Shown here piece after piece: positions 16,590-34,000 of a stretch of DNA of 51,483 nucleotides. A model generated the notes under the pieces. The model ran no database searches, was not told the DNA's origin, and saw only the letters and a list, made by a program, of their open reading frames with translations. The position numbers and the translations under genes were made by a program. How positions within the stretch are numbered: position 1 is the first letter of the stretch; each line of letters begins with the position of its first letter. Source of the DNA: Nanobdellota archaeon (GTDB taxonomy: Archaea > Nanobdellota > Nanobdellia > Woesearchaeales > WJIZ01); the NCBI GenBank assembly GCA_023140175.1, contig JAGLMD010000020.1, positions 1 through 51,483 of the forward strand. Reading direction: 5' to 3'.

Positions 16590-19103
16590 ATGAATAACAC
16601 AAATAAGAAAGAAAGAAACACAATCAATTATACTGCATATATATTGCTAATTATATTGCTAATATTAATAGTATCAGCAATAACATATTCAATGCCAGTA
16701 CCGCATGGTATTGATGGCAATATCTACGAATTAGATAGTCTGACTCCAGTAGGAAATAATATCGACTTCAGTATCCATGACATAACAACAGGAGAGTTCA
16801 TCCAGGGAAAAACAAAAAACAATGGATACTATTCAGCTGCATTGAATGGTAATAATGGAAACACAATAATAATCAAGACATGGAATAAACATCATTCCTC
16901 AAACAGAACAATCATCCTAAACAGTGTAATGCATAATGTAGATCTATTGCTTAATATGACAATGCCTCAGTTCCCGCCAAATATTACTTCCATCCCTATA
17001 ACAGAAGCAATAGAAGACATGCCCTATACATACCAAATAAAAGCAGAGGATGAAAATAATGATATTTTGACATACTCATTGCTAATCTATCCATATGGAA
17101 TGTATATTAACTCTAACACAGGCCTTATAGAATGGCTGCCAGAAAATGATGATGTAGGTATGCATAATATAATAGTGCAAGTTAGTGATAATATCTATAC
17201 AATAAACCACTCATTCAATATTGATGTTATAAATGTAAATGATCCTCCGGAAATAATTTCAGGAGAAATCATCTCTGCTATTGAGGATCAATTATACAAA
17301 TATGATGTAGAAGCTATTGATGTTGATAATGAGATATTATACTATTATTTAGATGAAAAACCAGATGGAATGAGCATCAATTTAACAACAGGCCTTATAG
17401 AATGGCTGCCAGAAAATGATGATGTGGGTGATAACAACATAACAATAAGAGTAAGTGACGGCAATTTGGACGCAATAAAATCATTCACTATCGAGGTTAT
17501 GAATACAAACGACGAATTTATAATTAATTCTACACCAATAACAACTGCATTAGAAGATGGACTATATACTTATGATGTTGACGCATATGATATTGACAAA
17601 GAGGATATATTAGAATACTCATTAATTGTCTCTCCATTCGGAATGGATATCAACACTTCAACAGGATTAATTAAATGGATTCCTTCAAACGAGCAAGTGG
17701 GTAATAATAGTGTTGTTATACAAATCTCTGACAACACTATATCACAAAATCAATCATTCATTATTAATGTCTTAAATGTTAATGACGCCCCGGATATAAC
17801 CTCACAGCCAATAAGAACAGCATATGTTTCAACAATGTACATATACGATGTAGATGCCTCTGATCCGGATAAGGATATATTAGAATATTCTTTATTAGAA
17901 AAACCAATAAACATGAATATTAATAAACATACTGGCATAATAAAGTGGGTTCCACAAAAAAGCCATATCGGAAATAACACTATAATAATAGAAGTAACTG
18001 ATAAAAATTTGGGCTCTACCCAAATATTCAATATTATTGTATATGATGACGAACAACCCACTATCAAAACTGGAAGCAGTAGAAATAAGCAAACAAAAGA
18101 CAAAGCACCAAAAAATAAGACTTGGGATATAATAGGAATACCAGAAGAACTTTCAACAGAAAAAACCATAATAAGAACCATAAAAAATCCAAGCGAAATG
18201 ATAGAGAGAATCGATATAAAAGGTAAAATAAAACAAGACATTAAAATAAATGTGAAAGAATTGGCAAGAAGGCCCATTAATACAAAAAACTTAGATAAAA
18301 AAGTTTACAGATATATAGAGATGCTTTTTGATTCTGGGAATTCTCAAGCCAAAACAAAAGAAGAAATAGTATATGTAGAGAGCATAAATATACAATTTAA
18401 AGTAGAGAAAGGTTGGTTAGAAGAAAATAAAGCTGAATTCTCAGACATAATATTAAACAGGTATGTAGATAATCAATGGAAAGAGTTGGTAGCTAAATAT
18501 ATAGGAACTAAAAACAATCATATTTACTTTGAGGCAAAAACCCCGGGTTTCAGTTATTTTGCAATATCGCTAAAAGACATAATAAAACCAGATAAAGTGA
18601 CAATAACAGGGCCAAAAGAGCCCCACATTGTATCAGGAATTATATTTAAAAACAATAGAAATGTACAAGTCGGAAATGGAACAGAGATCATAATCACTAA
18701 TAAAGACACCGGCCAGATCTTTAAAGGAAAAACAGGCATCAGCTTAAACTCAGGCCAATATTATCTGATAATTAACGGAAATAAGGGAGATATGATATAT
18801 ATTGAGATAAAAAAATGGGGTAGATCTTTCAAAACACAGTTTACTTTAGAAAGTGATATGAAAGAAGTTGATTTAATACTAACTGATAAAGGCCTATTCC
18901 CAATAACAGGGTATAGCACTATTTATAGTATCTCACCATTAAATCACTTAACCAACAATAGCCCTGCAATTAACTCTATAATTATACTGGCTCTTTTAAC
19001 TATACTTTATTCAATATATATTGCTTATAAAAGAAAAACATTAAAAAAGAAAAACCATCAGGAAAAGAAAGAACAAGACACAAAAAAAGAGGATTTAATA
19101 TGA
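16590..19103 (+). CDS. Surface protein with four cadherin-like / putative-Ig (He_PIG-like) repeats and a PGF-pre-PGF-like domain, C-terminal TM anchor
   Basis: 837 aa with an N-terminal hydrophobic segment (YILLIILLILIVSAITYS). A ~95-aa unit repeats four times (...YTYQIKAEDENNDILTYSLL..P.GM.IN..TGLIEWLPENDDVG.HNI.V.VSD......F.I.V.NVNDPPEI). The FKVEKGWLEENKAEFSDIILNRYVDNQWKELVAKY...FEAKTPGFSYFAI pattern resembles the archaeal PGF-pre-PGF domain. The C-terminus is a TM helix plus a K-rich tail. ATGA start/stop overlap with the next gene. Confidence 0.85.
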   Translation: MNNTNKKERNTINYTAYILLIILLILIVSAITYSMPVPHGIDGNIYELDSLTPVGNNIDFSIHDITTGEFIQGKTKNNGYYSAALNGNNGNTIIIKTWNKHHSSNRTIILNSVMHNVDLLLNMTMPQFPPNITSIPITEAIEDMPYTYQIKAEDENNDILTYSLLIYPYGMYINSNTGLIEWLPENDDVGMHNIIVQVSDNIYTINHSFNIDVINVNDPPEIISGEIISAIEDQLYKYDVEAIDVDNEILYYYLDEKPDGMSINLTTGLIEWLPENDDVGDNNITIRVSDGNLDAIKSFTIEVMNTNDEFIINSTPITTALEDGLYTYDVDAYDIDKEDILEYSLIVSPFGMDINTSTGLIKWIPSNEQVGNNSVVIQISDNTISQNQSFIINVLNVNDAPDITSQPIRTAYVSTMYIYDVDASDPDKDILEYSLLEKPINMNINKHTGIIKWVPQKSHIGNNTIIIEVTDKNLGSTQIFNIIVYDDEQPTIKTGSSRNKQTKDKAPKNKTWDIIGIPEELSTEKTIIRTIKNPSEMIERIDIKGKIKQDIKINVKELARRPINTKNLDKKVYRYIEMLFDSGNSQAKTKEEIVYVESINIQFKVEKGWLEENKAEFSDIILNRYVDNQWKELVAKYIGTKNNHIYFEAKTPGFSYFAISLKDIIKPDKVTITGPKEPHIVSGIIFKNNRNVQVGNGTEIIITNKDTGQIFKGKTGISLNSGQYYLIINGNKGDMIYIEIKKWGRSFKTQFTLESDMKEVDLILTDKGLFPITGYSTIYSISPLNHLTNNSPAINSIIILALLTILYSIYIAYKRKTLKKKNHQEKKEQDTKKEDLI

Positions 19104-20872
19104 ATAAAAATTATTTAATGTTATTTATCAGTATTATATGCCTCATCCTAATATCTCATATTATTAACGCTCCAGACCTGCCGCATAATGTAAAAGGAAG
19201 GGTATTCCATTCAGACGGCATTACTGGAGTAGATGACGGAATAATTGTTATGATCAACAACACAAATAATAACAACTATGTCACAACCCAGGTTTATTCC
19301 CCCCCATTCGAAAAGGGCTGGTATGGTACTACCATAGAAGGCACTGATTATGATACAATAATTGTAATGGCTTGGAACACTACAGCATATGGCATAAACA
19401 CAACAACACTTGCACCGACCACAACCTCTGCTAACATCGTACTAAATACAACTCGCCCAAGTGAAACAAATGTAACAATAATAATCCCTTCCGACCATAC
19501 TATGTTTAATATAACAAATTATTTTAATGTCACTGTTAAGGTTGGTGTTATTGGAGGAACTGATGGAGGAGATTGTACTGCAACCATAAGTTTTAGCAAC
19601 AGTGATGTATTAAAGCTTGCACCTTCTGAATCTGCAGCTCATGATATAGGGCCAATAAGTCTGGGAGATACTAAAGAAACTAATTGGAATATAAGCGGAA
19701 ATTTAACTGGCAGCCCGAATATTACTATCATTGCTAATTGTACAAATGACGGATTAAATTTTGATAATTTAAACAGCTATACCGCATATAATATAACAAT
19801 ACAGGACGATGAAGCACCGGCAGTAGAACTCATATATCCGGGAAATAACTCAAAAATAACAGCATCTAATTCCCAAATAGTCTTCAAATATAATGTATCT
19901 GATAATTCAAATATCGCAAATTGTTCACTAATAATAAACGGAAAAATAAATCATACAAATCATACCATTTCAAAAGAAATAACACAAAATTTTACTCTGC
20001 TGCTAACCAACAATACATATAATTGGAGTATTAATTGTACTGAGGATAGTACAGGCCGCAATACAGGCTCTTCTCCTATCTTCAATTTGACTATCATTAC
20101 TAATACTGCACCCACAGTAACTGACATTGATGTTGATGATCCAATTGATTTAACAGTGGGCTCAACAACTATTATATATTGCAATGCGACAATAACCGAT
20201 GAAAATGGCGTTGATGATATACGAAGTGTTAATTCGACACTTTATTATACTCCTGTTGGCGTTTTATCAGATGATGATAATAATGACCATTATACAAACA
20301 ATACCTGTGAGAATATATCAAGTACTGCAAATACCATAGATTATGTCTGTTCCTTTAATGTCTATTACTATGCAGACAATGGAATTTGGACATGTAACAT
20401 AAGTGCATTTGACAATATCAGCAATATTGGCAGCGATGCAATAGGAACAACAGTAAGTGAATTATTAGCTATAGATGTCTCCCCCTATATTATTGATTAT
20501 GGAGAAATAGGGCCTGGCGAGAACTCATCAGACGATTTTAAGCTAAACATAACAAATTTTGGAAATATAGACTTTAATGTAACAGTAGATGGTTTTGCCA
20601 GGGAAGATGAAGATAATCTGTCAATGAACTGCACAAGAGGGAACATATCAATCGAATATCAAAAATATTCAATACATGAAAATCAGCTTTATTATGAGAT
20701 GAACAATCTATCTGATTTACCCGCTTTAATTAGTAATTTCACATTACCACAGAGAACTAACGACACAACATATAAAAGGGATAAAAACCATACATACTGG
20801 AAGATGGGTTTACCCTATGGAATTCAAGGAAATTGTGCTGGTTTTGTTGTAGTTACAGGAATTAAAAGTTGA
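19100..20872 (+). CDS. Secreted/surface beta-sandwich protein sharing modules with the giant protein and with the 25686..26642 protein
   Basis: 590 aa with an N-terminal hydrophobic segment. It contains the module ...FKYNVSDNSNIANCSLIINGKINHTNHTISKEITQNFTLLLTNNTYNWSINCTED found in the giant ORF. The C-terminal ~260 aa (from TNTAPTVTDIDVDDPIDLTVGST..., about nt 20099) aligns with the 25686..26642 product. Sequon-rich. Confidence 0.85.
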   Translation: MNKNYLMLFISIICLILISHIINAPDLPHNVKGRVFHSDGITGVDDGIIVMINNTNNNNYVTTQVYSPPFEKGWYGTTIEGTDYDTIIVMAWNTTAYGINTTTLAPTTTSANIVLNTTRPSETNVTIIIPSDHTMFNITNYFNVTVKVGVIGGTDGGDCTATISFSNSDVLKLAPSESAAHDIGPISLGDTKETNWNISGNLTGSPNITIIANCTNDGLNFDNLNSYTAYNITIQDDEAPAVELIYPGNNSKITASNSQIVFKYNVSDNSNIANCSLIINGKINHTNHTISKEITQNFTLLLTNNTYNWSINCTEDSTGRNTGSSPIFNLTIITNTAPTVTDIDVDDPIDLTVGSTTIIYCNATITDENGVDDIRSVNSTLYYTPVGVLSDDDNNDHYTNNTCENISSTANTIDYVCSFNVYYYADNGIWTCNISAFDNISNIGSDAIGTTVSELLAIDVSPYIIDYGEIGPGENSSDDFKLNITNFGNIDFNVTVDGFAREDEDNLSMNCTRGNISIEYQKYSIHENQLYYEMNNLSDLPALISNFTLPQRTNDTTYKRDKNHTYWKMGLPYGIQGNCAGFVVVTGIKS

Positions 20873-20877
20873 ACAAA

Positions 20878-22017
20878 ATGAAACAGCCTAATTTAAAAAA
20901 ACATATCCGGTTTTTGGCTATTATCCTTCTCATCCTATTGAGCTTTCTTCTGTTAAATATAGTCACTGTAAAAGCTGATTTTTACGAATTAATCTACAAG
21001 TGTGAAAATAATCAGTGTGTAGAAGGGGATATTGCAGAATGGAATATAAAAATTAATAATGAAGGCGATAGCAAGATTGAAGTCAAAACTATCGAAATAA
21101 GAGACAGCATAAACAATAGCATTATAGCTATCTTTGATACAGACTATTATCCGCTAATGGACTATAGGGGGGACCTATTTGTAATACAGGCCAAACAAGA
21201 AAGAACAAAGACAATAAGAGCAGAAATACCAAAAGCTAACAATGGCACCAGCCTAATATATCACCTATGTTTTACAAATGCTGTTAACGAACCATATCTA
21301 TCAAGAGATGAGATCTATACTGTTGAACACTGTTATAGTGATAGAAACGAGATTATGCCAATTCTAAAATGTGCCTCGAACTCTTCCTGTAATAATGATG
21401 AATACTGCCTAGACAACGAATGTGTAAAGCTTGAATGTGGCTATTGCCAGTATATATCCTTCCATAGGTGTGCTAATTTCGAATGTTGTGATTCTAATAA
21501 ATGTGAAGAAGACGAGGCTTGTAAAAAGAGAAGATGCATCAAGCTTGACTGCATGGAGAACGAATACCTATCTGAACATATATGCATACCACTAAACTGC
21601 TCCTCAAATGAATTTATTTTTAATCATAGTTGTGTAGGAATAAACTGTGGGGAGGATGAATTTATTCTTAATCGCAGCTGTGTAAGGCTGAATTGCAGCG
21701 AAGATGAATTTATTCTTAATCGCAGCTGTGTAAGGCTGAATTGCAGCGAAGATGAATTTATTCTTAATCGCAGCTGTGTAAGGCTGAACTGTATGTTTAA
21801 TGAAACAGCAATAAGCCATAAATGTCAGGCTCTAAAATGTTATTTCTTCCAAAAAATAGCAAACAACAGATGCATAAACAACAAGCCATTAATATTCAAA
21901 CTAAGCATAGAATTTATTATTGTTTCAACTATTATTGCTATCCTTATAATAGATATAAAAAGATATAAATCAACTATTACAAAAAAAGAAAAGAGTTTAA
22001 AAATAGAAGAAAAGTAG
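20878..22017 (+). CDS. Cysteine-rich repeat surface protein with C-terminal TM anchor
   Basis: The ORF track starts at a TTG (20869) that overlaps the upstream stop. The first ATG is at 20878 (MKQPNLKKHIRFLAIILLILLSFLLLNIV = signal/TM). The central part is a regular Cys pattern with 16-aa repeats LNCSEDEFILNRSCVR. The C-terminus is a TM helix plus a basic tail (IIVSTIIAILIIDIKRYK...). Confidence 0.8.
   Translation: MKQPNLKKHIRFLAIILLILLSFLLLNIVTVKADFYELIYKCENNQCVEGDIAEWNIKINNEGDSKIEVKTIEIRDSINNSIIAIFDTDYYPLMDYRGDLFVIQAKQERTKTIRAEIPKANNGTSLIYHLCFTNAVNEPYLSRDEIYTVEHCYSDRNEIMPILKCASNSSCNNDEYCLDNECVKLECGYCQYISFHRCANFECCDSNKCEEDEACKKRRCIKLDCMENEYLSEHICIPLNCSSNEFIFNHSCVGINCGEDEFILNRSCVRLNCSEDEFILNRSCVRLNCSEDEFILNRSCVRLNCMFNETAISHKCQALKCYFFQKIANNRCINNKPLIFKLSIEFIIVSTIIAILIIDIKRYKSTITKKEKSLKIEEK
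21592..21831 (+). repeat. In-frame 48-bp (16-codon) tandem repeat, 5 units, two of them nucleotide-identical
   Basis: Units start at 21592, 21640, 21688, 21736 and 21784. Units 21688-21735 and 21736-21783 are identical (ctgaattgcagcgaagatgaatttattcttaatcgcagctgtgtaagg). Unit 21640 differs only in its first codons, and the flanking units are degenerate. Confidence 0.9.
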
Positions 22018-22026
22018 GTTAAACTA

Positions 22027-23211
22027 ATGAGACTAAAATTAGTAACATTCCTATTGCTGGCATGTTTATTGAATAGTATAGGCTATGCTATAAGCATAGG
22101 TGTAAGCCCGGGAAGAGTAACATTCGGCAATTTACTAAAAGAAGGCTATGCAGAAAGAACAATAAGAATAACTACAAACAGCCCTGAAGATATCACAGCC
22201 CATTTTACACCCAGCGGAGAAATTGTGCCTTGGATAAAATTCGAGCCAAATAACACAGTATTTAGCATGTCTTCAACTAACCCCCACATACTAAAGATTA
22301 TAATTATTCCACCAAATGATACAAGGAGTGATAGCTACTCCGGCAAAATAGATTTTGTTACAGACCGCTTTGGTAGTCCCACTGGAAGAGCAGGCGGACT
22401 TGTCAAGGCAGCAGTAACAATGACATTACTTGCAACAGTCTCAGACATAGAAACAATAGCATGTAGGGCAGGTGCCTTTTCACTCAAAGATATTGAGATA
22501 GGGTTCCCAATAGAACTCTCATACACAGTAAATAATGATGGAAATGTCAGAATAAAACCAAAAGTAGAGTTCGACATATGGGATCAGCTGCAAGAAAACC
22601 TGATATTAACCGAAGAATTCACAAGTGAAGAAATATTGCCGACAGTAGAAAAGAAGTTTGTAAAACAGATCTTTCCAGAAGGCTTAGAAATAGGCCAGTA
22701 TTGGGTAAATATTGATATAGATGAATGCAAAGCAGGAACTTTGACAAGTTTTAGTGTTGTAGAAAAGGGAGGAATAATAGATAATGGCTTACTAGAAAAA
22801 GTAAGTAACAAAGTATGGGCTTATGTAAGAGAACCGATTGAGATAATAGCCACATTCAAGAATACCGGACCGCGAACAGCCTCAGCTAAATTCAAAGGCA
22901 ATATTAAGCTGGAAGACAAAATTGTAGAAGTAATTGAGACTGAAGAAGTTGATGTAGAAAGCGGTGAAACTATTGGCCTAAAAACATTTTTTGAGCCCTC
23001 AGAGCCTGGAAGATATGTTATCAGCGGAAGAATAATCTACAATAGAAAGATGACATTCGAGAAAGGCAGTATTTTGAATGTAAGACCTGCTCCAGAAAAA
23101 CAACAAGAAGGAAAAACCACATATGTCCTGCTAGTGATATATCTCGTTATATTAATTTCAATATTATTTATGATAAGAAAGATTATTAAAGCAAAGAAAA
23201 AGAGAAAATAG
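22027..23211 (+). CDS. Surface protein, beta-sandwich repeats, C-terminal TM anchor with polybasic tail
   Basis: 394 aa. Signal peptide MRLKLVTFLLLACLLNSIGYA. Two similar halves have a pattern like a CARDB or PapD/MSP-type sandwich (ISIGVSPGRVTFGNLLKEGYAERTIRITTNSPEDI...). The C-terminal end is YVLLVIYLVILISILFMIRKIIKAKKKRK. Confidence 0.8.
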   Translation: MRLKLVTFLLLACLLNSIGYAISIGVSPGRVTFGNLLKEGYAERTIRITTNSPEDITAHFTPSGEIVPWIKFEPNNTVFSMSSTNPHILKIIIIPPNDTRSDSYSGKIDFVTDRFGSPTGRAGGLVKAAVTMTLLATVSDIETIACRAGAFSLKDIEIGFPIELSYTVNNDGNVRIKPKVEFDIWDQLQENLILTEEFTSEEILPTVEKKFVKQIFPEGLEIGQYWVNIDIDECKAGTLTSFSVVEKGGIIDNGLLEKVSNKVWAYVREPIEIIATFKNTGPRTASAKFKGNIKLEDKIVEVIETEEVDVESGETIGLKTFFEPSEPGRYVISGRIIYNRKMTFEKGSILNVRPAPEKQQEGKTTYVLLVIYLVILISILFMIRKIIKAKKKRK

Positions 23212-23490
23212 CCTTTTTAGTAACAATATCCAGTTACATTTCCAACCAATAATTATATTCATTTCACATCCTATTCTCTTACTACGGAACATATATCATA
23301 CAAAGCAGTAGTAATACTTATGAACATGCCCTAAAACAAGAAGAGTCTTACTATCATAAGACAATTATAGGTATAAGACTTTCTTGTCTTATAAGGTATA
23401 AGTATGATTATGAATTCTATAATTTATATACAACAAGCAAAAAGTAAATTTCTAAGATATAACCAATCAAATGCATTAATTTTACTATAC

Positions 23491-23514
23491 TAATTAAGTA
23501 ATTGGTTAATTACT
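23491..23514. promoter_or_regulatory. AT-rich palindromic module, copy A (TAATTAAGTAATTGGTTAATTACT)
   Basis: Matches copy D (30430-30453) at 21 of 24 positions. Inverted halves are AGTAAT...ATTACT. It starts exactly 130 nt upstream of the TTTATATA box at 23621. More TTAATTAATTAAC-type sequence follows to about 23556. Confidence 0.5.
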
Positions 23515-23613
23515 ATAATAGATTAATTAATTAACTACTATAAATAAATAATTATTGTATATTCTTAAGCATAGTCATAAAGAAAATACAGCAGTACAGT
23601 ATTTAATTAAAAA

Positions 23614-23628
23614 TCGAAACATTTATAT
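23614..23628 (+). promoter_or_regulatory. BRE/TATA promoter (CGAAACATTTATATA) of the first ArsR-like gene
   Basis: CGAAA BRE-like element plus a TTTATATA box about 70 nt upstream of the ATG at 23695. It is 14/15 identical to the element at 26895-26909. Confidence 0.6.
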
Positions 23629-23694
23629 ATGAGCATAGTTTAGATTATAATAAGATACCTTTTCCAATACTGATTTGGAATTTTAAAGACAAAA

Positions 23695-24354
23695 ATGGAG
23701 ATAACAACACTATTTGCCGAACAAAAATGGAATATCATTAAATCGCTCTCCAAAGACAAATTCTCCCCATTACAGCTTGCTGAAAGATCAGACACCACGA
23801 TAGCCAATATAAGCCAGCAATTGAGGCTCTTAGAAGCAGCCGAATTAGTTAAAAAAGAAAAGATTAAAAATAGGGAAAGGGGCAAGCCCAGAACACTATT
23901 CTCATTATCTAATGATTATGTTTTTCTTGTTTCTGCTATGAAAAATTTTGCTAAAAAAAGGCTGTTAGTATTATCAGATTATCATAAAGTCATCCTAAGG
24001 ATACTATTCCTGGAAAATACAGACCTTCATTATTATCTTGCGAAGTTTTACTGGAAAATAGAGGAATACCTTGACAGCATAAAAGCAATAATAGTCCTTC
24101 CTGATGGAAATGAAATAAAGGTCGTGATTGTAGCAGATAAAGCAAAAGAAATTGAAAGGAAAATAAGCCCCGTAGAGATAAAAAAGCCGAATAAGGAATC
24201 TAAATCAATCAAGATCCGGGGTATTACTCAAGATGAACTGGTAAAACTGGTAAAACAAGGAAAACATCCATTTTCTTCTGTAGAAGATTTGCAGGTTATT
24301 TACGATCCTGAAGGGATTATATCAGATTTAGAAAAACAAGGAGGAAACAGCTAA
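23695..24354 (+). CDS. ArsR/SmtB-like winged-HTH transcription regulator with ~130-aa C-terminal extension (paralog 1)
   Basis: 219 aa. The N-terminus WNIIKSLSKDKFSPLQLAERSDTTIANISQQLRLLEAAELVKKEKIKNRERGKPRTLFSL has the ArsR-type HTH-plus-wing pattern. It is a paralog of 26986..27624 (shared ...SDYH..IL...F.E.T.LHYYL.KFYWKIEE.L..IK...). Confidence 0.7.
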   Translation: MEITTLFAEQKWNIIKSLSKDKFSPLQLAERSDTTIANISQQLRLLEAAELVKKEKIKNRERGKPRTLFSLSNDYVFLVSAMKNFAKKRLLVLSDYHKVILRILFLENTDLHYYLAKFYWKIEEYLDSIKAIIVLPDGNEIKVVIVADKAKEIERKISPVEIKKPNKESKSIKIRGITQDELVKLVKQGKHPFSSVEDLQVIYDPEGIISDLEKQGGNS

Positions 24355-24360
24355 GAAAAC

Positions 24361-24475
24361 AGCAGGTAATATTTGAAAAAATTCAAGGCAAAAAAAGAAT
24401 AAGGCAAATCATGATCAACACCTAAAACACCTCGTGGTTATTTTTTTACCTTATATCTGGTTTGCCCTGGATTTT
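24361..24475. repeat. Intergenic direct repeat, copy 1 (103-nt perfect core 24373-24475)
   Basis: ttgaaaaaattcaaggcaaaaaaagaataaggcaaatcatgatcaacacctaaaacacctcgtggttatttttttaccttatatctggtttgccctggatttt recurs identically at 25523-25625, an offset of 1150 nt. No ORF. It contains a T7 tract and imperfect self-complementarity (aaggcaaaaaaa / tttttttacctt; ggcaaa / tttgcc). Confidence 0.9.
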
Positions 24476-24663
24476 CATTGTTCAGAAAATATTCAAAAAA
24501 ACAAAAATCCGTTTTTGAAAAACGGTGGTGGTGCCTATAAAAGTCATAATATGAAATAACACACATATATCATATTCACGATAATTGTGAACGTAAATGT
24601 AAATGTTTGAATGTGAATGTAAATGAAAATGCAATTGTATAACTAAGAGGAGGTTAAACGAAA

Positions 24664-25413
24664 ATGAAAATGAAAGTACAAACAGTTAAAACAATTCTGG
24701 CCCTGATTATAATAAGCATGATGGCCGCCATGGCAATGGCTGCCCCGACCGGTCCGGCAAATATCATAAGGGGGACAGACGGCAGAAGAACATCATTTGG
24801 TGAAACAGACCCCACAACAATTCAGGCTCAGGGAGGTAATGTAACCCAGCTGACAATTAACATAACCACAGGAACAGATAAATGGCAGGGTTATTACGGA
24901 AATATAAGCGGCACAATAACACTGGATGATGGAGACGGCAACACATTATATGATTGGTACGATGAAACAATATCTGTAGTGGGGGAGATATATGCAGCTA
25001 ACCAAAGCGGAATTACCTGGTCTGATGTTATCTGCGTAAACCTAACTGGAAATGGTACCTTAGGGCATGAGGGTATTAATCAGACAATATTAGAAGATAT
25101 GTATGGTATAGCCCATTCTGCTAAAGATGGCTTTGATGAAACATTCGATACTACAATAGATATTGAAATAAGTGGATCTAGCATAGGCACCTGTCCAGGC
25201 ACACGCCTATATGTAGATAACTCATCTCAAACAGAAAGATGGAATGAAACACTATTGACAGAGAATGCCACAGGAGCAGTAATCTTTGCAGTAGCTGTCG
25301 AAGAGAATGATCCGGGATTCAATGGCAAACAATGGGATTTCCAGATGATTGTCGCTGAAGACGACGCAACTGCAGGAGCAACACCTTATAGCTTCTACAT
25401 AGAATTGACATAA
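24664..25413 (+). CDS. Secreted protein of unknown function (WQGYYGNISG motif family), paralog 1
   Basis: 249 aa. Sec-type signal peptide with an A-x-A site (IIISMMAAMAMA|AP) and no other TM helix. SD-like AGGAGGT lies 8 nt upstream of the start. About 80 percent identical to the 27713..28465 product by eye. Confidence 0.85.
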   Translation: MKMKVQTVKTILALIIISMMAAMAMAAPTGPANIIRGTDGRRTSFGETDPTTIQAQGGNVTQLTINITTGTDKWQGYYGNISGTITLDDGDGNTLYDWYDETISVVGEIYAANQSGITWSDVICVNLTGNGTLGHEGINQTILEDMYGIAHSAKDGFDETFDTTIDIEISGSSIGTCPGTRLYVDNSSQTERWNETLLTENATGAVIFAVAVEENDPGFNGKQWDFQMIVAEDDATAGATPYSFYIELT

Positions 25414-25430
25414 GGTTTTGTTTTTTTATG

Positions 25431-25457
25431 TATAGAAATCAACTGCTGATTTCTATA
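25431..25457 (+). terminator. Hairpin (11-bp perfect stem, tatagaaatca/tgatttctata) flanked by T-tracts, downstream of 24664..25413
   Basis: Stem 25431-25441 and 25447-25457 with loop actgc. It is preceded by gttttgttttttt and followed by atttttagattttt. Oligo-T tracts are the usual archaeal termination signal. Confidence 0.5.
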
Positions 25458-25510
25458 ATTTTTAGATTTTTATTATTTTCAAGAAAGCAAAGAAGAAACA
25501 ACCAAGAAAG

Positions 25511-25625
25511 CAGAAGTAATACTTGAAAAAATTCAAGGCAAAAAAAGAATAAGGCAAATCATGATCAACACCTAAAACACCTCGTGGTTATTTTTTTACC
25601 TTATATCTGGTTTGCCCTGGATTTT
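25511..25625. repeat. Intergenic direct repeat, copy 2 (103-nt perfect core 25523-25625)
   Basis: Identical to 24373-24475. The ~15 nt upstream are also similar (cagaagtaatactt versus agcaggtaatattt). The preceding gaaagcagaag resembles the 3-prime end context of the ArsR-like gene (gaaaacagcagg). Confidence 0.9.
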
Positions 25626-25685
25626 ATTTTAATCATAAGCATAATGTAAAAGCGTAAACGTAAAAATAAGAAAGAGTAAACGAAA

Positions 25686-26642
25686 ATGAAATTTTATAAC
25701 CGAACAGCATCTGAAAATAAAGAAGTAGTTTTATTCGCTGCGCTGGGAATACTAACTATCTTGGGGATAACCATAGGACTAACTCTGGTATCTACTGAAG
25801 TTACCGGGGTAAATAACGAGACTGTAATTACAAAATTAAATGTAACAAACACAGCCCCGAGCTTATATAGGGTAACTGTCACCCCAATATCAGTTGACTT
25901 AACACCGGGAGGCACAAAACTAGTAAATTGCACAGGGGATATATATGATGCTAATGGCTACTCAGATATTAGTAATGTGAGCGGATCCATATATGATAGT
26001 GCAATAGGTGATGTTAATATAATTGACAAGAATTACCGTTACTACAATAGCTCTTGTGAATGTACACAAATAGCTGGCTCACCAACAAATGCCTCTTGCA
26101 GTTGTTTATTCTATGTAGAATATTATGCCAATAACGGCACATGGCAATGCAACATGACTGTTAATGATACATGGGGATTAAGAGATACAGCTAATTCCAG
26201 CCTATTTACAATAAATGATGTTGTTGGAATAGAGGTTATAAATGAAATAGATTATGGCAATCTATCCATTAGCGAAACATCCAATACTATACCTGTAAAT
26301 ATAAGTAATTACGGTAATCTCCCGATCAATATAAGCGTAAGGGCATGGGGAGGTACAACAGAATATAATGCAGGCCTCAATTCTACATGCATGATATGTG
26401 AGTCAGGCAACATTAGCATAGATAGTGAAAGATATACTACAGAAAGCACTGTCGACTACGCTGATATGACAAACATAACAAACACATCAACAAACATAGT
26501 AGGATTTTATCTGCCTGTAAGAAATAATGACACTAATTATGGTAATGATACCAATACGACATATTGGGCAATAAGAATCCCCACACAAGTGTCTGGATTC
26601 TGTAATGGAAGTATAGAATTTACTGGTATTTCGAGAGCATAG
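25686..26642 (+). CDS. N-terminally membrane-anchored, Cys-containing beta-rich extracellular protein (shares domain with C-terminus of 19100..20872)
   Basis: 318 aa with one TM helix (VVLFAALGILTILGITIGLTLV). TAPSLYRVTVTPISVDLTPGGTKLVNCTGDIYDANGYSDISNV ... YVEYYANNGTWQCNMTVND ... NISNYGNLPINISVRAWGG ... TYWAIRIPTQVSGFCNGSIEFTG aligns with TAPTVTDIDVDDPIDLTVGSTTIIYCNATITDENGVDDIRSV ... NVYYYADNGIWTCNISAFD ... NITNFGNIDFNVTVDGFA ... TYWKMGLPYGIQGNCAGFVVVTG. Confidence 0.85.
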   Translation: MKFYNRTASENKEVVLFAALGILTILGITIGLTLVSTEVTGVNNETVITKLNVTNTAPSLYRVTVTPISVDLTPGGTKLVNCTGDIYDANGYSDISNVSGSIYDSAIGDVNIIDKNYRYYNSSCECTQIAGSPTNASCSCLFYVEYYANNGTWQCNMTVNDTWGLRDTANSSLFTINDVVGIEVINEIDYGNLSISETSNTIPVNISNYGNLPINISVRAWGGTTEYNAGLNSTCMICESGNISIDSERYTTESTVDYADMTNITNTSTNIVGFYLPVRNNDTNYGNDTNTTYWAIRIPTQVSGFCNGSIEFTGISRA

Positions 26643-26795
26643 AAATAAAACTTTAGTTCTAAAAGAATCAGACCTGCATAATATCATTTTCTATTAATTT
26701 CTATCAGTTTATGTCAATTCCCTGCCAAAATAGTCAAATTCTGCCGCAAATAGATCTATTTTTCTAGATTATATCGACGATATAATATTTTTTAT

Positions 26796-26850
26796 TAATT
26801 AAGTAAGTAATTAAGTAGTTAAGTTAAGAAATTAATTAATTATTATAAAA
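26796..26850. promoter_or_regulatory. AT-rich TAATTAAGTAA-type module, copy B
   Basis: taattaagtaagtaattaagtagttaagttaagaaattaattaattattataaaa starts 106 nt upstream of the TTTATATA box at 26902. It shares TAATTAAGTAA and TTAATTAATTA blocks with copies A, C and D. Confidence 0.4.
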
Positions 26851-26894
26851 TATATCTTGTAATCTGATATCTTGTGCAATACTTAACCAAATAT

Positions 26895-26909
26895 CGAAAT
26901 ATTTATATA
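26895..26909 (+). promoter_or_regulatory. BRE/TATA promoter (CGAAATATTTATATA) of the second ArsR-like gene
   Basis: Near-identical to 23614-23628. It lies about 80 nt upstream of the ATG at 26986. Confidence 0.6.
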
Positions 26910-26985
26910 CTAGTATCAATATTAGTATATTAATCTAAGAAATAAGGAAATTTGTATAGCAGTATAAACATTCGAGGTGTTTTAG

Positions 26986-27624
26986 ATGAATATTGAAGAG
27001 GTGTTTAGTAATAGTAAATGGGACATTATAAAAGACCTCTCAGAAAAGAAATTCTCTCCATTGCAGCTTGCCCATAAATATAATACCACAATAGGAAATG
27101 TGGGGCATCAATTAAGGCTTCTGGAAGCATACGGGCTGGTTAAAAAAGAGAAAATCATAAACAGGGACAAAGGCAAACCCAGAAGCTTATTCTCATTAGC
27201 CTATGATTGTGGATATATAGTATCTGCTACTAGCGGCTTTGCTGAAAAAAAGTTCCTTAAGCTCTCAGATTATCACAACACTATCCTAAAGATGTGGTTT
27301 ATTGAAGACACAAGATTGCATTATTATCTAGAAAAATTCTACTGGAAAATTGAAGAACATCTTAGAGATATAAAAGGCATAGCTGTTAAGGTTGCTGACA
27401 GCAGCAGCATAGAAATAACAATCCTGACTAATCTGAAAAAAGACATTATGAAAAAAATCAATCCTAAGATGTTAATTAAGAATATGGAATCTGATGAAAT
27501 AACATTCAATATCAAATTTTTGAATGAAGATGATCTGAAAAGATTTGACTCAATCAGAGAGTGCTATATTATATATGATCCCAATGAAGTATTATCATGC
27601 TATAAGAAATCTTTCAAATTGTAA
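26986..27624 (+). CDS. ArsR/SmtB-like winged-HTH transcription regulator with C-terminal extension (paralog 2)
   Basis: 212 aa. WDIIKDLSEKKFSPLQLAHKYNTTIGNVGHQLRLLEAYGLVKKEKIINRDKGKPRSLFSL. It has the same architecture as 23695..24354 but is clearly more diverged than the adjacent secreted-protein paralogs. Confidence 0.7.
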   Translation: MNIEEVFSNSKWDIIKDLSEKKFSPLQLAHKYNTTIGNVGHQLRLLEAYGLVKKEKIINRDKGKPRSLFSLAYDCGYIVSATSGFAEKKFLKLSDYHNTILKMWFIEDTRLHYYLEKFYWKIEEHLRDIKGIAVKVADSSSIEITILTNLKKDIMKKINPKMLIKNMESDEITFNIKFLNEDDLKRFDSIRECYIIYDPNEVLSCYKKSFKL

Positions 27625-27712
27625 ATATGAATATAAAGGCGTGAATGTCATCGGAAATACTATCTATTTCTGGTGTAAATGAAAACGTAATTGTAAACCA
27701 AACTGAGGTTGA

Positions 27713-28465
27713 ATGAAAATGAAAATGAAAGTACAAACAATTAAAGCAATTCTAGCTCTAATTATATTAAGCATGATGGTTACTATAGCAATAGCTACAC
27801 CCTATGGGCCTGATAACATTAAAAGGGGGATAGACGAAAGGGGCAACATTACAGGGACTGATCCCAAGACAATACAAGCACAAGGAGGAAACGTTACCCA
27901 ATTAACAATCAATACAACATCATTAACAGCAAATTGGCAGGGTTATTATGGAAATATTAGCGGCATAATAACATTAGATGATGGAGACGGCAATACACTA
28001 TATGATTGGTACGATGAAACAATATCTTTAGTAGGAGAGATATATGCAGCTAACCAAAGTGGAATTACCTGGTCTGATGTTATTTGTGTAAACCTAACTG
28101 GAAATGGTACAACAGGCTATTCAGGTATTAATCAGACAGTATTAGAAGATATGTATGATATATCCCATTCTGCTAAAGATGGCTTTGATGAAACATTCGA
28201 CTCTGAAATAAACATTACAATAGGCTCAACTGGTTTGGGTGCCTGTCCAGGCACACACCTATATGTAGATAACTCATCTCAAACAGAAAGATGGAATGAA
28301 ACACTATTGACAGAAAATGCCACAGGCGCAGTAATCTTTGCAGTAGCTGTCGAAGAGAATGATCCGGGATTCAATGGCAAACAATGGGATTTCCAGATGA
28401 TTGTCGCTGAAGATGGCAGCAGTGCTGGATCTACACCCTATAGCTTCTACATAGAATTAGTATAA
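27713..28465 (+). CDS. Secreted protein of unknown function (WQGYYGNISG motif family), paralog 2
   Basis: 250 aa. Signal peptide ...LIILSMMVTIAIA|TP. Three in-frame ATGs open the ORF (MKMKMK), so the exact start is uncertain. The C-terminal third is almost nucleotide-identical to paralog 1. Confidence 0.85.
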   Translation: MKMKMKVQTIKAILALIILSMMVTIAIATPYGPDNIKRGIDERGNITGTDPKTIQAQGGNVTQLTINTTSLTANWQGYYGNISGIITLDDGDGNTLYDWYDETISLVGEIYAANQSGITWSDVICVNLTGNGTTGYSGINQTVLEDMYDISHSAKDGFDETFDSEINITIGSTGLGACPGTHLYVDNSSQTERWNETLLTENATGAVIFAVAVEENDPGFNGKQWDFQMIVAEDGSSAGSTPYSFYIELV

Positions 28466-28495
28466 GGCCTTATTTTTTTATTTTGAGTTTTCTAA

Positions 28496-28709
28496 ATGGA
28501 AGAGAAAAATGCATTTAGAGTAGAGGGAATACCGATTATATGAAAGATATGCAGGGGGCTTGATACTAAATTCATCCGAAGTTAACAGAGCAATTAATAT
28601 CACAATCACAAAAGTAAACATAGGAAATACAGAGCCCAACATAACAAGTGTTGTAGTGGCTCCAGCACCCATAGATCTCACCCCCGGCAGCAATAAGTGG
28701 AAAATGTAA
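28496..28709 (+). pseudogene. Decayed, truncated remnant of a 25686..26642-type gene
   Basis: ATG at 28496 gives MEEKNAFRVEGIPII and then a stop. After a frame change, SSEVNRAINITITKVNIGNTEPNITSVVVAPAPIDLTPGSNKWKM-stop aligns with STEVTGVNNETVITKLNVTNTAPSLYRVTVTPISVDLTPGGTKLVNC of the intact gene. The TM segment is missing and no homologous sequence follows 28709. The position matches the third gene of cassette 1. Confidence 0.7.
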
Positions 28710-28860
28710 TGGTACTTTGCTGTTTAGCGCAAAAGAAATCTGACCACAATTCTAACTATATAAAAAAGTGACTGTAACCCCTATAACCCGTTTCTTATAT
28801 TAACTAAATTTATTCACACACACCAATAGTAAACTTTACTGATTTATTAAGTTTAATAGT

Positions 28861-28880
28861 TAAGTAATTAATTAACTAGT
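28861..28880. promoter_or_regulatory. AT-rich TAAGTAATTAATTAAC module, copy C
   Basis: taagtaattaattaactagt is near-palindromic (AGTAATTAATTAACT). It lies about 110 nt upstream of a BRE/TATA-like aaaacttttaaagg (about 28966-28980) that precedes the 29046 gene. Confidence 0.4.
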
Positions 28881-29045
28881 ATAATTTATCAATTTAACTA
28901 AAAAATTAATTATAAAAACATAATCAAATATTGGAATTAAAAAAGAAAAACATTTGCTAATTTCAATAAAACTTTTAAAGGATAATGCCGCAAAAAAATA
29001 GTTCAGGAGTTATTTATCATATTACGCTAAGGCATAATACACAAA

Positions 29046-29342
29046 ATGAAGAGCATAAAAGTTAAAGATTATATAATATGGGGGACAATTGCGGCACTAG
29101 TCATCCTAGTTATTCTTGTTTTAATCATCCCGGGAAAAGAGAAATCATTTGAAATAAAAGATAGATGCGGCCCGATTATGAACCTTATATCCCACACGAT
29201 AGCAGATGAACCAAGATGCCAGACACAGTGTAAAGCAAAGTGTAAAACACTTGATCTCGAATTTAGCAGAATAGAATTCGAAAAAAAAGAAGCAGGCTGC
29301 CATACTTGCATTTGCTTCTGTAAAGAAGATTTATTTGGATAA
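29046..29342 (+). CDS. Small membrane-anchored cysteine-rich protein
   Basis: 98 aa. One TM helix (IIWGTIAALVILVILVLII) is followed by a domain with 8 Cys (CGP...CQTQCKAKCKT...CHTCICFC). Confidence 0.6.
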   Translation: MKSIKVKDYIIWGTIAALVILVILVLIIPGKEKSFEIKDRCGPIMNLISHTIADEPRCQTQCKAKCKTLDLEFSRIEFEKKEAGCHTCICFCKEDLFG

Positions 29343-30644: not shown

Positions 30645-30797
30645 ATGATAATACAGACATTAAATGTAAGAATTCCTAAAGAGACAGTTCTATGGTTGGA
30701 CTCATTAATCAATAGAGGAATCTATAAAAGCAGATCTGAAGCTATTCGGGACTATGTTAGAAAGTATATAGAAAAAGAAGGCAAAACAAATGAATGA
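30645..30797 (+). CDS. Ribbon-helix-helix (CopG/Arc/MetJ-type) DNA-binding protein, 50 aa (not in ORF track)
   Basis: ATG at 30645. MIIQTLNVRIPKETVLWLDSLINRGIYKSRSEAIRDYVRKYIEKEGKTNE-stop. A beta-strand (LNVRIP) followed by two helices with the SEAIRxxVR pattern is typical of RHH proteins. It overlaps the next ORF by 8 nt. Confidence 0.65.
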   Translation: MIIQTLNVRIPKETVLWLDSLINRGIYKSRSEAIRDYVRKYIEKEGKTNE

Positions 30798-31074
30798 TGT
30801 TATAGTTTCAATCAGGATCCCCAAACCGTTATTGTCAGAGATAAAAAGGCTGGTAGAAAAAGGATATTATATGGATACAAGTGAAGGAATAAGGAGTATT
30901 GTAAGAGACTCATGGACAAAATTCGAGAACCCAGAACTGGAAGAACTAAAAAAATTGAGAGAAGATATTAAAAAAGAGCTAAAGAAAAAAACAGAGAAGA
31001 TTATAAGAAGAGAAGTGATAGAAGAACTCGAAAAAATAAAAGAGATGATAAAAGAAGAGAGCTTATCAAAATGA
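30790..31074 (+). CDS. Ribbon-helix-helix (CopG-type) protein with K/E-rich C-terminal helix
   Basis: 94 aa. VIVSIRIPKPLLSEIKRLVEKGYYMDTSEGIRSIVRDSW repeats the RHH pattern of the upstream ORF, and a charged helical tail follows. ATGA overlap with the next gene. Confidence 0.6.
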   Translation: MNDVIVSIRIPKPLLSEIKRLVEKGYYMDTSEGIRSIVRDSWTKFENPELEELKKLREDIKKELKKKTEKIIRREVIEELEKIKEMIKEESLSK

Positions 31075-34000
31075 ATAAAAAAACATTCATATTCATAACT
31101 TTACTGGCCTTTATCTTACTACCCCAAATAGGAAAATCAGATTTATCAAAAACAATTTCAATAGAGTTAGAATATAAATCAAGTACTAATTGGGATCTTG
31201 ACAATAATGGCATCGAATCTAATAAGGCTGCAATTGACTTTACTGTAGAAGACACAAAATTCAGCTGGGATGCAGATGAAAGCAAGCTTTGCACAAGATG
31301 GGAGATTTATTCCATAGAAAACGAACAGTCTGGCCTAATATGTTATGGAAACAAAAAATGCTGCAATTTTATTGATTTAGAGCCAGAAATGCCAAACTGG
31401 AATAACATTCTTTACATACCATATCAAAAATATGGCACATCCAGAAATAACAAAGTAAGTGCAACAGTCATATATGTAGATTATAGCCTTGACCCGAATA
31501 ACCTCTATTCGGATATTTATTACTCTGAATTAGACTATTTATATGCTGTATATCTTGAAGAAAATCTGGAAGAATCAATACCAAAAAAATGGATAGTAAT
31601 AAAAACATCATCAGAAAACAGCCCCAAAATAAATTTCACAATAATCTCGCCTAATAACAAGACCAGCCTTATAAAAGGAGAAGATGTATATCTAAATTTC
31701 ACACTAAATATAACAGTAATGGCTAGTTACTCATTAAATTCTGGAAATTATGTTCCATTAGGCCTTAATAATTCTTTTTCATCAAAATTAAATGGTTCAT
31801 TGCCCTTCGATGTTATAGGGAATGGCAGGCACAATTTAACAATATACTTGATGGATAATCTCTCTGATATTATTAATTATACATATAGTTTTACTGTAAA
31901 CGATACATTAGCACCAGATATTTATGTTAATGTTGATGGAATCGAACTAAACAATTCAATAGTTAATAGAGAAAACCACACTATTGTAATAAATATAATA
32001 TCTGATGAATATAGTTCTATAAGCTATAAATTGAATGATGATGAATACCAAAACACAAATCTGGATGAAAATAAATCAGTCAGCATCAATGCTGAATTAC
32101 AGGACGGAAAAAACAACCTGACAATAAACATAAATGATATGCAGGGAAACAGTAGATTGCTTGAATATGGCTTCAATTTCGAGCTCTTGCCCACCTGCAC
32201 AGATGGTGTGCAGAACGGAGATGAAACCAGCATAGACTGCGGGGGAAGTTGTGAGGAATGCATACCATTTGACGTCAGCTTAGAAAAATATACATTCGAT
32301 CTGGGTGAAACTGTAGAAGTGACCATCCTGGCAAGAGCAAACTCTGCTGTTGACTTAAAGGTACTTTTCAACGGAAATGTGATAGATAGTGAATATATCC
32401 CAAGCTATTCTCCTGATTTCCCCATATATATAACTAAAACAATCAACAACATAGATGAAGAAGGAAATTACGAGATACAGGCGGCAATGTATTATATGAA
32501 CACAAGCGAAAATAAAGTCCTTTCTTTCTATGTTAATGATCCCGCGCCCCAAAACCCATTAAGTGTGAGCATCAAAGCAAACACAACTAGTATTAAAGAA
32601 GGTGAAGCAATAGAGTTCGGCGCTGCTATATCCGGGAATACAAGTGCTGCATCATTTAACTGGAGATTCGATGATGGCAGCACATCTACCCAAACAAACC
32701 CCAAACATACCTATAACCAAAATAAAACATATACAGTAAACCTTACAATTACCTGGAACGGATGGACAAAAACAGACAAGGAGACAATAACAGTAAAAGA
32801 GCCCTTTAAAATCATCATTGAAGTAGAAAATGAAGATGGCCGGGATATAGAAAATGCTGAAGTTGAATTTGATGATATCAAAAAAAATACAAGCAGTGAT
32901 GGCAAAGCATCATTTATAATCGCTGCTGGAACATATGATTTCACTGTCTCAAAAGAAAATTACATAGAATACTCAAACTCCACAAAAATAACAGAAAATA
33001 AAACAATTAGAGTAAAGTTAACAGAATACGAAACATATTATGGATATGATAATAAAGAACCCGCCATAACCTTATCAGGACCGGCAGATAATGAAAAAAT
33101 CAATCAGGAGAAAGTCACAATAAACTATAAAGTTCTGGATAGTTCTGCAGTAAACTGTACATTATACATAAATATAGATGAAGGCTGGTGGGTAGAAAAG
33201 GCATATGAAAAAAATATAACAGAAGACTCTGAAATTTCATTTGTAATAGATGATTTAGAAAATAAGCATTATCAATGGAAGATTGAATGTGTAGATAAAT
33301 ATGGAAATTCTCAAGTAAGTGAAACAAGAAACTTTAATGTAAGCAATACTAATATTATAACAACAAATCAAGGTATATCAATAGATGAAGCAATTAATAA
33401 GATTGGAATCTCAATATCTAATCTTGTATACTTAGAAAGAAATGAAAAAGAAGCAAGTGATGCCTTAAAGTTGAAAGAACTGCTGGAAAAATCCATAAAA
33501 AACCTGGAAAGGGCAAAAAGGGATTTAAACAATATTAAATGGAGAAAACTAAACGAGACTAAAACAGAAGAACTAAGACTTTCAATAATAGACAGGATAG
33601 AGAATATAAAGAGATCAACACCCAATACTATAAAAGTAATTGAAACAAAAGAATTTGTCGGTTATCCAGACAAAGAAGACGTAAGAAATATATCATTGCA
33701 TGTGCTGGAATCAGAAAATAAGAAATACAAAAAAAGAGAAAAAGAGGAATATGTCAGCTACAACCAGGAATTGCAAAACTTAATCAGCATAACAACGAAA
33801 TCAAAAGCCATAGAGGTGGGATATATTTCAGGAGAAACAGGAAGAATTACCCTGATAGAAAAAGAGATCAATATAAAAGAAAGTTCTGAAGATTTGAGCT
33901 TAGTAGAATCAATACCAAAGGCCATCGCAGCCAATACAAGCTGCATTAATGCCTTATTTGATTATGCAGTTATTCTTGAAGATCCTATGATAAGGCTGAA

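Follow-up and report, generated by a model that had tools for sequence, protein, structure and literature searches.

The 51,483-nt contig JAGLMD010000020.1 of a Nanobdellota archaeon (assembly GCA_023140175.1), hereafter the window, has two adjacent cassettes coding for a winged-helix regulator (reg), a Sec-exported protein (sec), and a protein with immunoglobulin (Ig)-like domains (anch), and these genes lie in an archaeal cluster for Sec-exported surface proteins that is organized around a domain family not yet classified. Our favored, though tentative, reading is that sec and the Ig-domain protein together act as a glycosylated module for scaffolding or docking that is shared within a lineage-specific surface assembly. 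The secreted protein belongs to a large family of exported glycoproteins that is specific to the lineage, comprises about 1,600 clusters at 50% identity, has fixed partner genes, and is without detectable relatives. Through synteny and fused domains, both sec and anch are tied to adhesin-like giants and a membrane ATPase. Woesearchaeota and Pacearchaeota are abundant, almost entirely uncultured, and thought to be attached to other cells. We know of no molecules described at this interface, and these families are concrete starting points for predicting structures at the DPANN cell surface and for studying it by proteomics and imaging.

The secreted protein family

The two secreted proteins of the window, sec1 and sec2, share 81% amino acid identity (E 9e-151), and each begins with a hydrophobic stretch ending in an A-x-A site (A-M-A|A in sec1 and A-I-A|T in sec2). 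Hydropathy scans found no second hydrophobic segment in either protein and no C-terminal hydrophobic segment or sorting signal of the PGF-CTERM type in sec1, sec2, or anch1. A preliminary description of this DNA had proposed a Sec signal with an A-x-A site and no anchor, and is confirmed on both points. The signal is not of the class III type used by type IV pilins and archaellins, since the hydrophobic stretch precedes the A-x-A site. Each of the two proteins has 10 to 12 N-x-S/T sequons, with N59 and N80 nearly invariant across the family, and a Cys pair is conserved. Sequon density is 4 to 7 per 100 amino acids (aa) in sec, anch, and a 590-aa surface protein encoded upstream, compared with 0 to 0.7 in the cytoplasmic proteins of the window; the signal peptides and this density together argue for an extracellular role of sec. 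Two further predicted surface proteins of the locus fall across a sharp split from these three, the 394-aa protein (22027-23211) with two sequons and the 555-aa protein (37170-38837) with none.

Neither sec nor anch has a match in Pfam, NCBIfam, or PHROGs, including all 76 members of the sec alignment, and profiles of the two families returned nothing usable from PDB sequences (0 matches for sec). An AlphaFold2 monomer model of sec built on the 76 sequences has a core (residues 70 to 249) with predicted local distance difference test (pLDDT) scores mostly above 90, and leaves a strongly conserved segment at residues 46 to 69 (AQ(A/G)GNVTQL) unplaced, with pLDDT below 50. Foldseek comparison of this model with PDB and BFVD gave no match at E 1e-3 or better. 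The weak, nonsignificant neighbors are mostly beta-jelly-roll glycan binders and capsid proteins (GH131, PL7, CBM51, ConA-like, and polyomavirus VP1), all with E above 0.01 and template modeling (TM) scores below 0.2. Sequence libraries, PDB sequences, and structure comparison all bear out the earlier impression that sec fits no named family. The possibility that sec and anch are themselves distant homologues was dropped; hhalign gave a 27-column match at 42% probability, and the two are thus treated as unrelated.

A word-indexed search collected 108 clusters of the sec family at 90% identity, and an exhaustive profile search collected 1,589 clusters at 50% identity; the named members are from Woesearchaeota, Pacearchaeota, or Nanoarchaeota. 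The literature that we searched holds no account of these families. A module of 51 families specific to Pacearchaeota and Woesearchaeota, mostly of unknown function and often extracellular, has been reported (PMC8204110).

The Ig-domain partner

The AlphaFold2 model of anch1 (pLDDT 92) has one N-terminal helix (residues 11 to 33) followed by two Ig-like sandwiches. All 203 Foldseek matches at E 1e-3 or better are tandem Ig or fibronectin type III (FnIII) proteins, the best being Vibrio cholerae RbmA, the BspA C-domain, and the CsuE and CfaE tip adhesins (E 2.6e-6 to 1e-4). These share with anch the two tandem sandwiches, predicted here with high confidence, but they differ in that anch has an N-terminal membrane helix; since TM scores are low (0.2 to 0.36), sequence identities are 8 to 12%, and Fabs score about equally, the similarity is one of fold class only. 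The model thus assigns anch to the tandem Ig-like class, and the family comprises 62 clusters.

A conserved V-x-G-A motif follows the helix and could be a signal peptidase site, in which case the helix would be a cleaved signal and not an anchor. No [KR]-G/A motif, as in type IV pilin-type signals, precedes the helix. The third protein of the cassette had been described as N-anchored and beta rich; its single N-terminal hydrophobic helix and its beta sandwiches stand, whereas the anchoring is uncertain because of this motif. The same description had placed a domain of anch at the C terminus of the 590-aa protein, and anch1 indeed aligns with residues 333 to 589 of that protein (open reading frame [ORF] 19100-20872) at 34% identity (E 2e-40). 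We note that the Ig-like domain at residues ∼200 to 370 of the 590-aa protein recurs, in diverged form, at least seven times in a 5,266-aa ORF (731-16531), in which no sec-like or anch-like end was found.

Gene order and distribution

Scanning species-representative genomes turned up 287 sec-encoding stretches, and the best 80, as nonredundant loci, were analyzed by calling ORFs and labeling them with profiles made from the window proteins. These 80 species-level loci contain 123 runs of sec genes. The regulator is directly upstream on the same strand in 49 of the 123 runs, anch is directly downstream in 48, and both flanks are occupied in 26, with the gene for a C-terminally anchored 555-aa protein often next after the triad. 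The three-gene module that had been proposed from the window is therefore not peculiar to its source genome. The sec family splits into two old subfamilies at fixed gene positions, with clade A being the gene immediately after the regulator (51/51) and clade B usually the gene immediately before anch. Both sec1 and sec2 belong to clade A. These fixed positions fit distinct partners in one complex.

Most of the best 80 stretches are labeled as metagenome-assembled genomes (MAGs) of Woesearchaeota, Pacearchaeota, or Nanoarchaeota, and several as "archaeon" only. About 20 are labeled "uncultured Methanosarcinales" in third-party annotation (TPA) records, which we take to be an automatic mislabel, and the operon so far appears only in Nanoarchaeota (Woesearchaeota and Pacearchaeota). 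Multiple sec paralogues per genome are seen. The triad usually sits within a larger conserved locus, all of it present in the window, that codes for a giant protein, a He_PIG-domain protein, the 590-, 382-, and 394-aa proteins, a PKD protein, and an ATPase; the last two are syntenic with reg-sec-anch in loci L001, L002, L017-L019, and L022. A mobile element or provirus was considered and rejected, since synteny of the locus and of flanking genes, among them eRF1, extends over many MAGs.

Domain fusions and the membrane ATPase

A sec-like domain forms the extreme C terminus of surface proteins of 460 to 2359 aa. The head of the 590-aa protein recurs at 46% identity over 340 residues in locus L031, where its tail is sec-like and not anch-like as in the window. 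Such fusions indicate that the sec-like and anch-like modules serve as interchangeable ends of larger surface proteins. Five of the fused proteins of relatives (P0215, P0274, P0276, P0291, and P0303; 600 to 785 aa) have a match to a Nup98-type S59 autopeptidase and a conserved HF|S motif upstream of the sec-like end, which suggests self-cleavage that would free the C-terminal part.

The ATPase of the window (768 aa; 34624-36930) has a signal or transmembrane segment, a beta-rich ectodomain of ∼230 aa, a second transmembrane segment, and an FtsK/HerA P-loop domain that matches DUF87, HerA_C, TrwB, TraD, VirB4, and CedD models, all far under family cut-offs. Its gene overlaps the gene for the 1189-aa PKD protein (31071-34640) by 17 nt, and two small ribbon-helix-helix genes (30645-31074) precede the pair. 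Pacearchaeota and Woesearchaeota also have long-form DUF87/HerA ATPases of 1,100 to 1,400 aa (P0314-P0403; L066, 3402-6758). Of these 90 long-form clusters, 82 have a sec-like domain at residues ∼58 to 246 that directly adjoins the first membrane helix. CarboxypepD_reg-like repeats, the second membrane helix, and the ATPase domain follow in that order. In many relatives the sec module and the ATPase ectodomain are thus parts of one polypeptide, and the window ATPase is a short form without this module. The arrangement of transmembrane segments around an ectodomain and then a P-loop domain resembles TraD/VirD4, VirB4, and the archaeal Ced ATPase, but these differ from the window protein with its large beta-rich ectodomain and from its relatives with their sec-like start. 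No other conjugation or secretion components were recognized alongside the window ATPase.

Possible roles at the cell surface

On the reading that we favor, sec and anch would be the structural or docking modules that the members of a cell-surface assembly have in common. The repeating or scaffold part would consist of free sec subunits held by anch, the large surface proteins with a sec-like or anch-like end would join it by like-with-like contacts, and, in many relatives, the sec-like module that tips the ATPase ectodomain could join likewise. The adjacent regulator would control expression of the whole set. Contact between sec and anch, polymerization or homotypic docking, and control by reg are putative steps of this reading. 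In its favor are the conserved triad and its synteny with the PKD protein and the ATPase, the position-specific subfamilies, the use of both modules as tails of large surface proteins, the fusion to the ATPase ectodomain, the glycoprotein signature, and the ArsR-type assignment of reg. The conserved segment at residues 46 to 69 of sec, left unplaced in the monomer model, is a possible intersubunit strand.

By analogy, the gene arrangement is most like that of a pilus- or S-layer-type cluster, with subunits, an anchored partner, and adhesins carrying the subunit domain. Donor-strand filaments such as chaperone-usher pili, Sulfolobus threads, TasA/AbpA, and the CanA cannulae of Pyrodictium similarly have Sec-exported, beta-rich subunits (heavily glycosylated in archaea), several paralogous subunit genes per cluster, large adhesins terminating in the subunit domain, as in two-domain tip adhesins, and an N-terminal strand; the conserved strand-like segment of sec, unpacked in the monomer model, is suggestive of one. 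They differ in that sec has no sequence or Foldseek similarity to them (CanA matches the sec model at E 5.1 only), that no usher, chaperone, or SipW-type peptidase gene is present in the sec cluster, that the strand-like segment is kept in the fused forms, and that polymerization of sec is putative. The SlaA/SlaB S-layers of Sulfolobales are comparable in having adjacent genes for a glycosylated outer protein that lacks an anchor and a beta-sandwich partner anchored in the membrane. However, sec is roughly one-fifth the size of SlaA, anch has its putative anchor at the N terminus and not the C terminus and has no coiled coil, the sec/anch cluster has many paralogues per genome and a dedicated regulator, and no homology was detected. 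There is no S-layer structure among the Foldseek matches of sec or anch and no S-layer family among their Pfam and NCBIfam searches, and none of the pilus or S-layer membership tests that we ran placed the sec cluster in either group.

Several observations weigh against a scaffold or docking role. The segment at residues 46 to 69 is kept in the fused forms and so may be merely an intradomain strand; no solved filament, S-layer, or pilin subunit resembles the sec model (Foldseek, best E 0.67, TM below 0.2); in some loci (L001/L015) sec is present as a tandem of four genes without anch in the vicinity; and a role as variable binding proteins would likewise account for the many copies of sec in a genome. 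The searched literature holds no expression or proteomic data on these families.

Variable binding is the core of an alternative that we consider unlikely but give serious weight, in which sec is a nonpolymerizing, lectin-like adhesin module that is shown on anch, the giant proteins, and the ATPase ectodomain and binds host or substrate glycans, with the paralogues giving different specificities. The many conserved aromatic and acidic residues of sec (W74, Y77, W98, W119, D155, D225, F226, Y242, F244, and E247), the jelly-roll character of its nonsignificant structural neighbors, the terminal position of the sec-like domain in large surface proteins, and the several paralogues per genome are all compatible with such a role. 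However, no lectin or carbohydrate-binding module family is matched significantly in structure or sequence, the ordered subfamilies A and B suit fixed partners better than a repertoire of specificities, and the most conserved residues recur in every paralogue, although variation would be expected of binding sites. It is quite unlikely, in our estimate, that sec, anch, the PKD protein, and the FtsK/HerA-type ATPase make up an undescribed, Nanoarchaeota-specific apparatus spanning the envelope, with sec as a polymerizing or docking subunit of new fold on the ATPase ectodomain and the giants as distal adhesins. If true, such an apparatus could mediate attachment to, or exchange with, host cells, on which archaea with such reduced genomes rely, and the interest of the system would be greater if the ATPase link reflects a real machine.

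Slightly less probable still, in our view, is a role of sec as an effector that is released, whether as an enzyme or as a membrane-active toxin, and acts on a host envelope, with the autopeptidase-containing giants as delivery precursors. The S59 autopeptidase upstream of the sec-like domain resembles the "releasing peptidase plus C-terminal domain" architecture of polymorphic toxins (PMC3482391), and standalone cassettes adjoin such giants. Despite this domain in some fused relatives, the sequences do not have the features expected of polymorphic toxins, as the C-terminal domain is conserved family-wide and is not polymorphic, and neither an immunity-like gene nor a conserved small gene follows it. 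Moreover, standalone sec has its own signal peptide and invariant glycosylation sequons, no known toxin or enzyme fold was matched, and a toxin mounted on a housekeeping-looking membrane ATPase (82 of 90 homologues) is hard to explain.

Evolution of the two cassettes

The duplication that gave rise to the two cassettes is ancient, judging from the sequences of the regulators. Synonymous sites of reg1 and reg2 are saturated (synonymous divergence [dS] ∼2.4, with a nonsynonymous-to-synonymous ratio [dN/dS] of 0.17), the two are 47% identical over their full length (E 1e-67), and each has a closer orthologue (69% for reg1 and 66% for reg2; L030) in one other species, MAG177, where the gene order anch>reg>sec is as in the window. 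A recent tandem duplication with the second copy now decaying is accordingly very improbable, even though sec1 and sec2 are far closer to each other (81%) than to any orthologue elsewhere (at most 56%) and cassette 2 has a pseudogene in third place. The pseudogene, anch2, resembles anch1 (50%) no more closely than it does homologues of other origin (up to 64 to 67%), and the resemblance of the sec genes (dS 0.51) is mosaic, with nucleotide identity of 60 to 100% across 45-nt windows and a longest identical tract of 86 nt, a length reached in 0 of 2,000 permutations. This pattern is consistent with gene conversion, and the sec copies look young because they have been homogenized.

The anch2 remnant consists of the N-terminal ∼75 codons joined to the last ∼20 codons of the gene. 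By blastx, the N-terminal part (∼28548-28700) matches residues ∼20 to 78 of the anch family in one frame and has an in-frame stop inside the former membrane segment, and the C-terminal part (encoding GKCNGTLLFSAKEI* and ending at ∼28737) matches residues ∼288 to 325 in another frame; the gene has thus lost ∼200 internal codons and acquired a frameshift. The preliminary description correctly recognized a frameshifted, truncated remnant of the third gene with its N terminus, but ended it at 28709, and the remnant is both more damaged than was described and retains the C terminus. That description had also raised an assembly artifact concealing a full second cassette, and we consider the chance of this close to negligible. 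Although the repeats of the region could in principle mislead an assembler, we found no support for such an error. The 5,701 nt from 23400 to 29100 recur in two assemblies independent of that of the window (99.95 to 99.98% identity), with one mismatch in GCA_030636085.1 (L007) and three in ENA ERZ23498485, from another sample (L008); the remnant itself has one mismatch (28558) in the former and none in the latter. The pseudogene is therefore not an assembly artifact, and it has three independent lesions.

Loss is not confined to cassette 2. One of the three differences in ERZ23498485, a C>G change at window position 24794 (∼6760 in L008), converts sec1 codon 44 from TCA to TGA and is the sole nonsynonymous difference in the 5.7 kb; sec1 is thus inactivated in that sample, where sec2 is intact. 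In a sister strain that is ∼99.3 to 99.5% identical (contig L011), reg1 is joined to anch1 across a single copy of a 147-nt repeat, and sec1 is absent. The dN/dS values of 0.17 to 0.23 for reg2 and sec2 indicate purifying selection. From these sequences, decay touches both cassettes, and with anch2 a pseudogene and sec1 stopped or deleted in sister strains, the population seems to be reducing two cassettes to one working set. Of the earlier account of a duplicated cassette with a decaying second copy, the two copies and the anch2 pseudogene hold, but the duplication is not in progress (dS 2.4, with orthologues of 66 to 69% elsewhere) and decay is not a property of the second copy, in which reg2 and sec2 are maintained. 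The cassettes are a small example of three processes within one natural population: ancient duplication, concerted evolution of one gene, and complementary loss, of anch2 in all strains and of sec1 in some.

In the closest species-level relatives (L003, L014, and L016), genes for proteins of ∼167 and ∼480 aa follow anch in that order, and then a 98-aa Cys-rich gene. The window has neither of the two at 28740-29045, and tblastn found no trace of them (x167 and x482) between the anch2 remnant and the 98-aa gene. The ∼480-aa family also adjoins sec genes in many distant loci.

Regulators and candidate control elements

A profile of 49 regulator-family members matches ArsR and CzrA structures (E 1e-5), and 47 of the 49 match Pfam HTH_5 at 0.01 or better, which supports at profile level the ArsR-like winged helix-turn-helix previously proposed. 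Scores against curated families are modest; NCBIfam HTH_metalloreg matches reg1 at 4.7e-7, under its cut-off, and the window regulators miss such cut-offs generally. The first ∼70 residues account for the ArsR-type match, and an Lrs14-like structure is also matched by this region (E 0.0055), as in ArsR/SmtB repressors such as CzrA and the archaeal Lrs14-type biofilm regulators. Profile searches with the C-terminal ∼140 residues returned no match. Compared with ArsR/SmtB repressors, which are compact dimers of ∼100 to 120 aa, the window regulators are 212 to 219 aa with this additional domain, and reg1 has no Cys and hence lacks the cysteine-based (CXC-type) metal site found in ArsR-family sensors; the comparison of sensing sites covered the cysteines. 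By sequence, the regulator is an ArsR-type winged-helix protein with an extra C-terminal domain and not a classical metal sensor, and synteny suggests that it controls the adjacent sec and anch genes.

The window has just two mismatch-free copies of the motif CGAAA(C/T)ATTTATATA, at 23615 and 26895, 66 nt upstream of the reg1 start and 77 nt upstream of the reg2 start, respectively, in keeping with the near-identical promoters noted earlier for the two cassettes. The motif is an ordinary archaeal B recognition element (BRE)/TATA element. Copies of the 147-nt repeat, a candidate cis element with its T run and TATA-like box, flank sec1 and are 93% identical overall and 99% identical over a 110-nt core (D4). 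A 29-nt motif (D6; TGTAAATGAAAAYGYAATTGTAWAAC...) is common to sec1, anch1 (25675-25703), and sec2, where it lies upstream of or over the start codons; at sec1 the motif spans 24618-24646, and a TAAATG array precedes the gene at 24582-24639. Motif and array are candidate elements that may act as leader or operator.

Two other candidates were dropped. The sequence CACCTAAAACACCTCG in the 147-nt repeats (24419-24434 and 25569-25584) is complementary at 15 of 16 nt to the reg2 ribosome-binding site and start codon (26973-26988), but pairing of this kind is near chance in 5.7 kb and is partly Shine-Dalgarno/anti-Shine-Dalgarno. The heptamer CAGTATW, two inverted copies of which (23597 and 23666) flank the reg1 promoter, was considered as an operator; it occurs 33 times in the window against 19.8 expected (33 was reached in 0 of 100 shuffles), but the enrichment is window-wide, and no tie to the cassettes was established. 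AT-rich, TAATTAA(C/G)TA-like arrays, with copies of repeat family D2 at 23488, 26793, 28829, and 28854, mark the cassette borders and are possible boundaries, upstream activating sequences, or recombination sites.

Organization of the window

The window has a low GC content (∼33%). An ORF check recovered the five ORFs of the preliminary description, whose coordinates for both cassettes are correct (Table 1). An Rfam comparison of 23200-29100 and a tRNA search returned nothing usable.

Table 1. Features of the reg-sec-anch cassettes and the surrounding surface locus
Feature	Coordinates	Strand	Details or evidence
reg1, ArsR-type winged-helix regulator	23695-24354	+	219 aa; winged helix-turn-helix at residues ∼5-75 and ∼140-aa C-terminal domain
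sec1, Sec-exported N-glycosylated beta-rich protein, clade A	24664-25413	+	249 aa, ∼225 aa exported; 10 sequons, conserved Cys pair
anch1, N-terminal hydrophobic helix and two Ig-like domains	25686-26642	+	318 aa; 22 sequons; 9 Cys
reg2, diverged reg1 paralogue	26986-27624	+	212 aa; 47% identity to reg1
sec2, sec1 paralogue, mosaic nucleotide identity	27713-28465	+	250 aa; 81% aa identity to sec1
anch2 pseudogene	28496-28737	+	DNA alignment; blastx matches in two frames
Secreted surface protein (p590) with anch-like C-terminal 260 residues	19100-20872	+	590 aa
1189-aa PKD protein, then 768-aa membrane FtsK/HerA (DUF87) ATPase	31071-36930	+	Pfam, NCBIfam, synteny
C-terminally anchored surface protein (p555)	37170-38837	-	555 aa; after anch in many genomes
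reg1 BRE/TATA-type promoter CGAAACATTTATATA	23615-23629	+	Exact motif match
reg2 BRE/TATA-type promoter CGAAATATTTATATA	26895-26909	+	Exact motif match
AT-rich TAATTAA-type array upstream of cassette 1	23475-23554	.	Tandem Repeats Finder (TRF), period 25/4
AT-rich TAATTAA-type array between cassettes	26794-26842	.	TRF, repeat-family comparison
AT-rich TAATTAA-type array downstream of cassette 2	28829-28917	.	TRF, repeat-family comparison
147-nt intergenic repeat, copy 1	24333-24479	+	T7 run, TATA-like TTATAT; begins in last reg1 codons
147-nt intergenic repeat, copy 2	25484-25628	+	Single copy bridges reg1-anch1 in L011
TAAATG hexamer array and 29-nt leader motif upstream of sec1	24582-24646	+	TRF period 6, 9.3 copies
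29-nt leader motif upstream of sec2	27674-27702	+	D6, 83% identical to sec1 copy

The 382-aa Cys-rich protein encoded downstream of the 590-aa protein (20869-22017) has perfect tandem 16-aa repeats (SEDEFILNRSCVRLNC) at ∼21600-21820. Its gene is 16 codons shorter in the ERZ23498485 assembly (363 versus 379 aa), a difference that points to variation in repeat copy number within the population.

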